DNA of 38,480 bases from a virus. Lineage: Duplodnaviria; Heunggongvirae; Uroviricota; Caudoviricetes. Made by a program: the position numbers. Where the stretch lies: the IMG/VR virus record IMGVR_UViG_2718218396_000012, one strand, 5' to 3'. Positions 27,001 through 30,000 of the stretch are shown piece after piece; the first letter of the stretch is position 1; each line of letters starts with the position of its first letter.

Positions 27001-30000
27001 ATGTCAGTAATGGTGGCGGTCGCCTGCTTCAGCTCACTGACTTTTTTATCACGCTGTTCTTTATAGGCGATGGCGTTATCACGGTAATGATTAACCGCCC
27101 ATGACTGGCAGACGATGATGCAGATAACCAGAGCGGAGATAATCGCGGTTACTCTGCTCATTGTTGCCCCCACAAACAGACTTCACGCTCAATCTCGCGG
27201 CGAGTCATCAGCCCTTTCCATTGCTTACCGCCAGCGTATGTCCAGCGCCGTAGCTGATCACATGCGCCTTTGATATCACCCTGGTTTATTTTGCGAAGAA
27301 GCGTCGATGTTCTGAAATTACCAGCGCCCACGTTGTAAACGAACGAGTAAAGAGCGCCGCGCGTTGTTTCCGGTATATCGACTTTGATGTACGGGTTAAT
27401 TTGTCTGGCGACCGTGGCAAGGTCTTTATTCAGGAGGGCTTTGCATTCTGCTTCGGTATACGTTTTACCGGGAATGATGTCTTTTCCGGTGTGTCCGTGA
27501 CATACAGTCCATACGCCAACGATATCTTCGTATGGTATGTAGCTGACACCTTCCAGGCCATCGTCACCACTCGGACCAGTGATGAGCACAGACGCTATGG
27601 CAGCAGCCCCACCACCAATAGCAGCAGCAACAGCCTTGCGTAATGATGGCGACATTATTCACCTCTCGCAGCCTTACGCTTATCTTCTTTAATCTTGAAA
27701 TAAAGGTTTGTCAGATACGTCAGCAAGCCAAACACCAAGCTACCCAATACGCCTATTGCCACCCACTGGGATGGGGAGACTTTGTCCAGCAACTGCAGTA
27801 GCCAGTATCCCGTCCCCACCGCTGACGTGGTGTATGACACACCTGTTGTTATTTTTTCCATCTGGTACATACCCCGTCTCCCGTTATCCGGAAGCTGACA
27901 ACAATAAAAAGCCACCAGTTAATTCCTGATGGCCCTGATGCATAAACGTCATAATACCTGACTGTTATGATTGACAATAATGATAATGTTTATATAGAAA
28001 GGTTCCCGATGTGTGTTACATATCATTTCTCCACGGGGAATATCCCCACGCCAGCGCAGACTCTTTTACCCGTTCTCTTCTGCGCTGGCTCTTTTTTATT
28101 ATGCTGCTGCATTTACCTCTGGCACCATGCTTTCTATCTCAACACAATACGTGGTACTTCTTGTAACCAATATCATAACGATTAATCGACATAGAATTTC
28201 TCCCGTGTACAGGAACAGAGTTAAAAAGCCGGAACCGGAATCAAATCACAGGATGACCATCTGCCAGTGGCAGGTCATAAAAAAAAGGCCGCGCCATGCG
28301 CAGCCAGAACTCACAAGGAAAATGATAGAAGGAAATAACATTAGTGATGTACGCATGGCGCCTCCCGCTAAGTTCTGCAATGATCAAACAGAACTCGCTA
28401 CGTGCCCTTAAAACTCGATCATTTAGCCCCTCCAAGGAGGATTCACCATGCGGTTGATTTTTTAATAAACAGTAAACAAAAAAGTCAAGAATTATTCATT
28501 CTGTTCTTTCATCATCGGCCACAGCAATACCACAATGCCGCAGACCAGAGCGCCATCAGTCAGTACCAACATTATCCTGCTGGTGAAATCCATCATCACC
28601 ATCACTAAAAGCAGGATCACAACAGCAAGCAGACACAGTTTATAAAACAATGTTCAGGAAACGCATTCAGCATGCCTAAGGTTCTATTCCTACGAATAGC
28701 CAACTTGCAACTTAAAATATTATTTATGCAGCCAATTAAATTCTGGTCCTTACAATATCAACCTGAAGATTCTTATCTTGTGCTGATTGATAAATGACAA
28801 ACCTTTTACTACCTGCATTGAAAGAAGTAGACAAAACCAGACAATTATCATAACGAGCAAGAACATAATACCAACCATCATTATAATTAATCATTTCATA
28901 TTCTTTCTTAAACTGTGGTTTGTAATATCCTGTCAGAAATGAAAAAAGCCAGAAATATGCCACAAAAGCAATCATCACAATCTCAAAAAAATGTTTTTTT
29001 ATAAATGGCTTATCATAGAAGCATGATACCGATAAAAATCGCCCATAAGATCTTATCGAAATTGTAACCGCCAGCGCAATCGCTGCTGACAGTAGCAAAA
29101 GAGGTACCTGAATCTTCTGTCTCAATATAGAAAACTCAATAATTGCCGGCACAAACAATAATTCCACAGCAAAATAAAGGCGAAATACATTTAGCTCTTG
29201 CATAGAATGTTTTCTTTTCACTGCGAAAAAGAATACAACACCAATACCCCAACCGATAAGAAATATAGCAATGACGATAACTGCAAAAAATAAACTTCTG
29301 GCAACATCATCAACACCTGCACCTACAATCCACCATGGGAAGCCGTAGTAAAAAGAAGTACCCCATCCATAGAAATAAGCACTCCCCCATCCAAGGCATC
29401 CCATGTAGGCAATAAAAAGTGAAGAACTCCTGAGCAGCGCACCATCCTTCATAACCACCCCAATACAAGATGATAACATTGGCTTACAACTCATAACAAA
29501 AGCAATTCAATGCCGTCAAGAGGTTACAGGCTAAAAAAACTCTATTACATAGCAGCCAGCATGTTTACCGTACAAGTACAACTCAGGGCATAAAAAAACC
29601 CACTCGGCAGCGGGTTTATACATTTTTTACAACATACCAAATTTGCATGAAGTATATGGCTTTTAATCCAGTTTTGCAATATTTTGCTGTAAAAATGCTG
29701 CCTTTTGTTTTGAACGTGTTCTCGTCACAAGCAATAAAGCATCACTATCAAGCTGTAGAAAAATGTGCTTCATTGCAACCCAGCGTTCAGTAAATGTCTC
29801 GGACCAGTTTTTTGTTGTCACTCCCACCAATGATGCCAGTGTCTGGTATTCATAGGCCTCACGCCCTGCAAGTTCGCTCTTCACATCCTGTGCAGCCAGC
29901 CAGATTAACGTCTTCAGGCGATCCAGTGTCTTACCTGCAATTTTTCTGTTACTTAACAAATCTTTAAACTCGCTCCATGCCCATTGCGTTATGGTGACCT

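Follow-up and report, generated by a model that had tools for sequence, protein, structure and literature searches.

Read-through of the late operon driven by the antiterminator Q is established biology of the lambdoid phages, and the slot between Q and the holin gene (the Q-S slot) is the place in which Shiga toxin (Stx) phages carry stxAB. Other prophage genes encode proteins of the inner membrane, as is the case for the superinfection-exclusion proteins SieA of phage P22 and gp15 of HK97; the known exclusion proteins are small, lie in the inner membrane and lack catalytic motifs. Here we describe a gene from the Q-S slot of IMG/VR virus record IMGVR_UViG_2718218396_000012, a stretch of 38,480 nucleotides (in the following referred to as the window) which is a prophage of Escherichia coli O157:H7. 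This gene, the cargo gene, is located on the minus strand within a locus that is 100% identical to many O157 genomes. It is intact and encodes a real, conserved polytopic membrane protein, which we assign to the STM1630 family. The object itself is already known, as public records contain the exact protein, those of phage 434 and of thousands of E. coli genomes among them; its family, too, has been catalogued, and any novelty would lie in the function and the fold class.

Like stxAB, the cargo gene has a low GC content and the same place relative to Q, tRNAs, nanS-p and the holin gene, and it would be expected to depend on Q-antiterminated late transcription in the same way. Stx is however a secreted toxin, whereas the cargo protein, an integral membrane protein, remains in the cell that makes it. 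With SieA and gp15 it has in common that it is a small, non-enzymatic inner-membrane protein encoded by a single gene of the moron type, but no similarity to them in sequence, profile or fold was found (Pfam, PHROG, PADLOC, BFVD), and members of the STM1630 family are larger (five transmembrane (TM) helices plus a beta-domain) and often not prophage-borne. Among 50,697 phage records searched with tblastn the protein was found in two only. The first is phage 434, in which CPT_434_68, a 'putative membrane protein', shows 100% protein identity and is part of the same module of Q, gene, DUF3927 gene and terminator; unlike the window, phage 434 has retained the nanS-p (SASA) esterase gene between this module and the holin gene. 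The second is phage 2B8, in which gp58 shows 97.9% protein identity and is followed by the same DUF3927 gene and terminator, but stands behind a different Q and without LpxR.

Outside of phages, the orthologue that has been studied is STM1630 (SL1560) of Salmonella Typhimurium, which gave the RefSeq family its name and shares 46% identity with the cargo protein (phmmer E 1e-70). The Salmonella sequence used here (P0075) is STM1630, as the deletion primer given for STM1630 in the PMC6785131 supplement codes for NSSMLLAYLGGLGWG, in agreement with P0075, and as the gene is divergent from sseJ. In the supplement tables STM1630 appears beside sseJ as a 'putative membrane protein' of 717 bp; its function is described as unknown and the gene is missing from S. 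Typhi (PMC6785131). H-NS binds STM1630, and this accounts for the gene having seemed 'essential' in transposon screens. Strain 4/74 expresses it in medium inducing Salmonella pathogenicity island 2 (SPI-2) and in macrophages, and two single-nucleotide polymorphisms in the -10 element of the promoter silence it in all strains of the invasive ST313 (PMC6785131). Deletion of STM1630 in 4/74 raised intramacrophage replication (PMC6785131), and mutants were attenuated in calves and chickens according to Morgan et al. 2004, as far as that work is cited in PMC6785131. In addition, STM1630 is part of a set of 123 genes co-regulated with SPI-2 by virulence regulators and is co-expressed with envelope genes of the PhoP/SsrB type (ugtL, pagD, pqaA, lpxO). 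The similarity to the cargo protein extends over the full length of 238 aa and includes the N-terminal GWGSAYFYGWG...YYGFPWW...ARSL and the C-terminal YKPQ.KKEYEM...WYY.LAR. Both genes are AT-rich, and STM1630 also stands alone beside horizontally acquired virulence cargo (sseJ). In contrast to the cargo gene, STM1630 is fixed in the chromosome and has a promoter of its own that responds to H-NS and SPI-2 conditions; it lies outside any prophage late operon, and no DUF3927 gene adjoins it.

The coding sequence (CDS) which we propose for the cargo gene is the following:

28736..29452, minus strand: CDS of the STM1630-family inner-membrane protein, 238 aa from Met15 (starts of the homologues, PHROG 1521, dN/dS).

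The open reading frame (ORF) of 252 codons that had been described before does exist at 28736..29494, minus strand, if counted from the first ATG, and with the base composition found here, chance would produce an ORF of such length only about 0.002 times per window. Most likely, however, translation starts at Met15, giving 238 rather than 252 aa. This is suggested by the lengths and starts of the homologues, nearly all of which comprise 236–238 aa and start at the equivalent of Met15, behind a conserved Shine-Dalgarno sequence. In an alignment of the upstream DNA from seven genomic contexts the Met15 ATG (29452..29450) is in register throughout, with GTG in the copy of enterotoxigenic E. coli (ETEC), and is preceded by a conserved GAGG-like Shine-Dalgarno motif. 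Database records differ in their choice: the RefSeq call reaches 29479, where the mechanical ORF reaches 29494, and uses Met6 (744 bp), as does the record of phage 434, while Met15 is used in the record of phage 2B8.

The gene differs markedly from its surroundings in composition, as had been noticed at the outset. GC content is 0.33–0.40 over 28600..29800 compared to 0.50–0.57 in the late and structural region, and the CDS itself has a GC content of 0.363, with 0.305 at third codon positions (GC3). Pairwise ratios of non-synonymous to synonymous substitution rates (dN/dS) within the family are 0.11–0.26, with 0.196 for the close pair of O157 and phage 2B8, and therefore the gene encodes a protein under purifying selection. 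Together with the complete identity to the phage 434 protein, this agrees with the earlier impression that the gene is intact.

The protein had been thought to carry no assignable motif, but it does belong to a family, which is itself uncharacterised. It matches the profile of PHROG 1521 (unknown function) with E 2.1e-154 over positions 1–222 of 222, and 103 of 103 homologues found by phmmer in a collection of 5.8 billion proteins carry the precomputed label PF27470 'TfpB'; this assignment consists of the precomputed labels together with homology, the PF27470 model being absent from the local Pfam-A copy. In more recent RefSeq records the identical gene goes by the name 'STM1630 family protein'. 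In the local libraries of Pfam-A, NCBIfam and PADLOC the cargo protein itself had no match beyond a meaningless one to CrgA (E 0.46), PADLOC-DB 2.0 giving 0 families at E<=1, and ten distant family members had no matches in NCBIfam. Apart from the start codon and this question of family, the preliminary description was essentially right.

The family is a small one, with 72 representatives at E<=1e-3 in a profile search of 1.84 billion cluster representatives. The named matches, all of them annotated as hypothetical and all from animal-associated bacteria, come from Enterobacteriaceae and, at 20–30% identity, from Pasteurellaceae and Neisseriaceae. Within E. coli a member is present in at least 1197 of 5426 complete genomes (by blastn alone), at a median of two places per genome, and among the E. 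coli alleles many are only 55–68% identical to each other. The 80 loci kept from IMG/VR contained solely copies from E. coli prophages that were 100% identical to the cargo gene. Both motifs of the family are present in the cargo protein, namely the N-terminal A-x9-AY-x-YGWG...YG-x-PWW...ARSL and the C-terminal G-x-Y-x-P...YY-x-L. In an alignment of 59 sequences Y26 is invariant, and A15, A25, G31, G37, P39, G175, Y195 and L198 are conserved to at least 90%.

That the protein passes the membrane several times, as proposed before, is supported by four Kyte-Doolittle hydropathy peaks above 1.5, in addition to an aromatic and glycine-rich first helix, and by five long helices in the AlphaFold2 models. 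Modelling from an alignment of 23 sequences gave a predicted local distance difference test score (pLDDT) of 65, modelling from 59 sequences including distant subfamilies a pLDDT of 79.9 and a predicted template modelling score (pTM) of 0.73. The helices in the model comprise residues 10–36, 47–79, 84–111, 116–137 and 155–181 and are followed by a five-stranded beta-domain at 184–235; this predicted architecture matches that of the family, i.e. about 236–250 aa with five TM helices and a small C-terminal beta-domain. The mean net charge from lysine and arginine in the 59 sequences is +0.8 for the N-terminus, -0.5 for loop 1 (37–46), +2.6 for loop 2 (79–91), +0.5 for loop 3 (111–115) and +2.5 for loop 4 (134–158). 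By the positive-inside rule these values make the N-terminus cytoplasmic and the beta-domain periplasmic, and we therefore infer five TM helices, an N-in orientation and a periplasmic beta-domain of about 60 residues. Residues conserved to at least 75% are, with few exceptions, glycine, proline, alanine or aromatic. They are concentrated where TM1 ends, in loop 1, where TM2 begins and at the beginning of the C-terminal domain; jointly these regions make up the face that is predicted to point to the periplasm. None of the positions conserved throughout the 59 sequences is charged or nucleophilic, which speaks against an enzyme.

More than 12 distinct genomic contexts of the family were compared, and no neighbour is common to them, suggesting that the STM1630-family gene is a stand-alone, AT-rich moron without an obligate partner. 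In 434-type prophages Q, the cargo gene and the DUF3927 gene follow one another, and LpxR lies just upstream of Q. A prophage with an Stx-phage-like backbone shows the order Q, methylase, tRNA-Met, tRNA-Lys, homologue, LpxR (convergent), PmrD, nanS-p and holin, so that the homologue, which is 68% identical, sits in the exact position of stx. ETEC plasmids (loci L003–L007) carry a member with 59% identity at 5001..5714, divergent from eltAB (2987..4134), with STb near and insertion sequence (IS) elements around. In the iro variant (L010–L014, gene at 5001..5714), which is found in 454 genomes including Nissle 1917, the gene is part of a prophage remnant beside iroB/iroC and Bor, with a tRNA-Arg(tct) downstream (5899..5975 in L010). 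The sequence of the tR' terminator is kept upstream of this homologue; as the variant retains both the 82-type tR' and the tRNA-Arg, in many genomes of extraintestinal pathogenic E. coli and of Nissle type the salmochelin island borders at its end on the remnant of a lambdoid prophage. UTI89 contains a partial match to the O157 allele. On chromosomes, members are divergent from LpxR in Citrobacter rodentium and from sseJ in Salmonella. One member is located on a Rep3 plasmid, and those of Pasteurellaceae and Neisseriaceae are single orphans between housekeeping genes.

LpxR was found beside family members in three arrangements: with Q in between (window and 434), convergent at about 255 bp (Stx-like prophage) and divergent at about 180 bp (C. 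rodentium, where LpxR is called as two ORFs). The coordinates of LpxR in the compared loci are 5972..6919 (L015), 5970..7504 (L016) and 3863..4823 (L009). This repeated adjacency could reflect a functional linkage or shared AT-rich cargo. The arrangement on the ETEC plasmids raises the possibility that the LT-I locus of these plasmids derives from phage cargo, the usual home of the family being the Q-S slot of lambdoid prophages.

Within the window the cargo gene has the following neighbours:

29663..30352, minus strand: antiterminator Q of the phage 82 type (RefSeq annotation; the mechanical ORF extends to 30436; Pfam PF06323, 1.7e-91).
28492..28650, minus strand: small DUF3927 membrane protein of 52 aa, annotated as 'TciB' or 'TciB-like'.
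27655..27870, minus strand: P21-type class II (pin)holin, bordering the slot on its downstream side (PF04971, 2e-32; RefSeq).
30827..31786, plus strand: LpxR-family lipid A deacylase, divergent from Q (Pfam PF09982, 6.8e-40).

A lysozyme of the signal-arrest-release (SAR) type (PF00959) and spanin ORFs are also located downstream on the minus strand. With Q upstream and holin and lysozyme downstream, the cargo gene is therefore placed in the Q-S slot, which it had been assigned to before, although it shares this slot with the DUF3927 gene downstream of it. The proposed equivalence with the position of stx is borne out by the order Q, cargo gene, TciB, nanS-p esterase and holin in phage 434, to which 28168–33000 of the window shows 98.8% identity, and the Stx-like backbone described above agrees. 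The 3' end of Q is a 97% match to the phage 82 Q record.

The signals which may govern expression of the gene are the following:

29651..29679, minus strand: pR'-like late promoter, TTGCAA-17-TATACT, overlapping the 3' end of Q (consensus scan).
29587..29617, minus strand: intrinsic terminator tR', 9-bp stem and T-run (scan; the 434 record annotates a terminator in the same place).
29470..29511, minus strand: candidate promoter of the cargo gene itself, TTGACG-~18-TATGAG, overlapped by TTGTTA-18-TGnTATCAT (consensus scan and sequence).
28279..28305, minus strand: GC-rich intrinsic terminator, 8-bp stem (7 GC pairs) and T8, after the DUF3927 gene (the 434 record annotates a counterpart).

An arrangement of Q, promoter and tR' as seen here is that expected of late promoters of the 82 type. 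We infer such a pR'/tR' layout between Q and the cargo gene, and the earlier proposal that the gene is transcribed from the late promoter is plausible on this basis. A moron-type promoter of its own is likewise plausible: the candidate is located immediately upstream of the Shine-Dalgarno motif of Met15, and its CTTGAC(G/T) -35-like element and the spacing are conserved in four E. coli contexts, including the ETEC plasmid, the iro island and the Stx-like prophage.

The reading that we favour, with a probability of roughly 40%, is that the cargo protein is a stand-alone, non-enzymatic protein of lysogenic conversion or host adaptation which acts at the periplasmic face of the inner membrane. 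Its gene would move between Q-S slots of prophages, plasmids and chromosomal islets. Upon induction it would be read strongly by Q-modified RNA polymerase, being the first ORF behind pR'/tR', and the promoter-like element suggests that it may be expressed in the lysogen as well. The conserved surface facing the periplasm (end of TM1, loop 1, start of TM2 and the beta-domain) would then alter a property of the host envelope without catalysis, and the protein would be a component of neither the virion nor replication nor lysis. This hypothesis is based on the company of the family (LpxR, PmrD, Bor, nanS-p, the LT genes, STb, SseJ and the salmochelin genes), on the regulation of the Salmonella orthologue together with virulence genes, on the restriction of the family to animal-associated bacteria and on the lack of any defence-system signature in our searches. 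Of the three roles suggested in the preliminary description (superinfection exclusion, abortive infection and envelope modification), the last would be the best fit and is consistent with the gene company.

Several observations weigh against this reading. In Salmonella STM1630 is dispensable for growth in LB (PMC6785131), its deletion causes no growth defect and the phenotypes are mild or inconsistent; a deletion mutant was hypermotile in a screen, but the follow-up study does not list this phenotype as confirmed. For the E. coli or 434 allele the literature yielded no experimental work, and under the names TciB, DUF3927, PF27470 and TfpB it contained nothing on the STM1630 family. The association with virulence genes may reflect only shared AT-rich mobile cargo, and the topology is a prediction only. 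The match of the candidate promoter to the consensus is weak, promoter-like sites being no commoner in this region than in shuffled sequence, and the mapped promoter of Salmonella STM1630 is a different one, about 215 nt upstream of the gene. Finally, the fold searches gave no informative relative, neither with Foldseek against the PDB (first model, best E 0.76) nor against BFVD (best E 0.028 over 66 columns), and a profile search of PDB sequences gave a best E of 0.12 to a G protein-coupled receptor, which is not significant.

The main rival is a role in superinfection exclusion or anti-phage defence, in which the protein, made in the lysogen and located in the inner membrane, would use its periplasmic face to keep out the DNA of incoming phages or to set off abortive infection. 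A prophage-borne, AT-rich, single gene without partner would suit this role, as would the many divergent alleles across E. coli genomes, the small size and lack of catalytic motifs shared with known exclusion proteins, and the conserved residues that by the predicted topology face the periplasm, where phage ejection proteins act. On the other hand PADLOC was empty, the gene is rare in sequenced phages (434 and 2B8 alone), many members are fixed orphans between housekeeping genes outside prophages and defence islands, the Salmonella orthologue is SPI-2-regulated and macrophage-induced, and dN/dS gives no sign of diversifying selection, so that we regard exclusion as rather unlikely, if still the strongest competitor. 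A further suggestion is that the protein is an accessory of lipid A or outer-membrane remodelling tied to LpxR and PmrD, which might for instance gate or modulate the 3'-O-deacylation by LpxR or another property of the lipopolysaccharide. The three arrangements with LpxR, the position of PmrD after LpxR in one prophage and the co-expression of STM1630 with ugtL, pagD, pqaA and lpxO speak for it; it is weakened by the fact that most contexts have no LpxR nearby (ETEC plasmids, iro island, Salmonella, 2B8, Pasteurellaceae and Neisseriaceae), and moreover conserved catalytic residues are absent, an inner-membrane protein with a periplasmic domain of 60 residues has no obvious path to an outer-membrane enzyme, and the co-location is perhaps only one of shared cargo. 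We consider such a link improbable.

Another role would be that of an orphan immunity protein, directed against a toxin that acts on membranes (such as a colicin or bacteriocin that forms pores, or an effector of contact-dependent or type VI secretion systems). In its favour, the cargo protein is a horizontally spread, multi-pass inner-membrane protein from a single gene, and the neighbouring gene is labelled 'resistance to colicin'. This label however derives from a phage P1 annotation and belongs to the neighbour, not to the cargo gene; a toxin gene was adjacent in none of the contexts examined, and Pfam, its colicin-immunity families included, gave no match, which leaves immunity quite improbable. 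Its place at the head of the predicted late transcript, directly before the lysis cassette, might instead indicate a late phage function for efficient lytic growth, such as lysis timing or the protection of progeny from re-adsorption. Such a function is very unlikely for a gene that is absent from nearly all lambdoid phages, common outside prophages, carried on plasmids and fixed in the Salmonella chromosome with its own regulated promoter; in Pfam, in which the adjacent holin and lysozyme score strongly, the cargo protein has no match to holin, spanin or endolysin families. Least credible of all is an accessory role for type IV pilins, for which the only arguments are the Pfam short name 'TfpB' and a tfpB ORF in the pilin inversion region of Moraxella. 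No pilin or pilus gene was present within 4–5 kb in the enterobacterial, Pasteurellaceae and Neisseriaceae loci examined, the NCBIfam models for pilin accessories match neither the cargo protein nor distant members, and 'TfpB' in the literature denotes unrelated PilB-like ATPases or type IVb pili. A linkage to pilins was rejected on account of the Pasteurellaceae and Neisseriaceae loci, which lack pilin genes.

Returning to host adaptation, a bolder proposal, which we consider unlikely, is that the family represents a new class of stand-alone, non-enzymatic inner-membrane effectors with an undescribed fold, spread by lambdoid phages in the stx slot. Such effectors might reprogramme the envelope (via LpxR and lipid A or via a sensor-kinase pathway) or might block the entry of phage DNA, and might thereby affect colonisation or intracellular growth. 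If true, this class would be common to animal-associated Enterobacteriaceae, Pasteurellaceae and Neisseriaceae. The carriers comprise enterohaemorrhagic E. coli O157, the toxin plasmids of ETEC, the iro islands of uropathogenic E. coli and Nissle, Citrobacter rodentium and most Salmonella enterica, and in lambdoid prophages the family occupies the cargo position with the strongest expression. Assigning its function would annotate thousands of pathogen genomes and could reveal a new mechanism of host adaptation or of exclusion.

The DUF3927 gene accompanies the cargo gene only in the module common to 434, O157 and 2B8, and by tblastn in no other context of the family; an obligate pairing of the two was therefore rejected. 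N4-like and other phages have short matches to DUF3927 as well. In phage records the gene is labelled 'TciB-like inhibition of cell division or resistance to colicin'. These names originate in the annotation of phage P1, where the description is putative and where the gene was non-essential in a CRISPR interference screen. As regards the P1 genes tciA, tciB and tciC, it is only the neighbouring DUF3927 gene that is TciB-like, and the label carries no information on the cargo protein. A P1-type relative of the cargo protein was not found by tblastn in the phage records named above, among which the inclusion of P1 itself was not confirmed.

Scans of the window for Rfam families and tRNAs gave nothing in or near the cargo locus. 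Elsewhere, the preliminary description had considered the prophage partly damaged, and this fits with an IS629-like insertion in the interval between the lysis cassette and the terminase genes, marked by an ALIL frameshifting pseudoknot (Rfam RF01497, 121 bits) at 25137..25253 and an IS3-family transposase orfB of 296 aa at 24321..25211, both on the minus strand; the comparison record TR01 has no IS annotation in this interval. At 27865..28167 the window contains about 300 bp instead of the region of about 2.27 kb (1300..3570) which in phage 434 carries nanS-p, a carbohydrate esterase gene of the SASA family. RefSeq annotates a 'hypothetical protein' of 132 aa (WP_012578864.1) antisense to the late operon at 28013..28411, plus strand, but this is probably a spurious call because it crosses both the terminator (28287..28305) and the deletion junction. 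Just past LpxR a truncated fragment of a lambda-type Q is annotated both by RefSeq and in the 434 record (region 31787..31997; 7306..7395 in the latter), and therefore the block of LpxR, ylcG, the 82-type Q and the cargo gene looks as if it had been inserted into, or had replaced part of, an older Q region. The region marked '434B nonhomology' in the 434 record, which extends from inside the holin gene to ylcG, largely overlaps this block.

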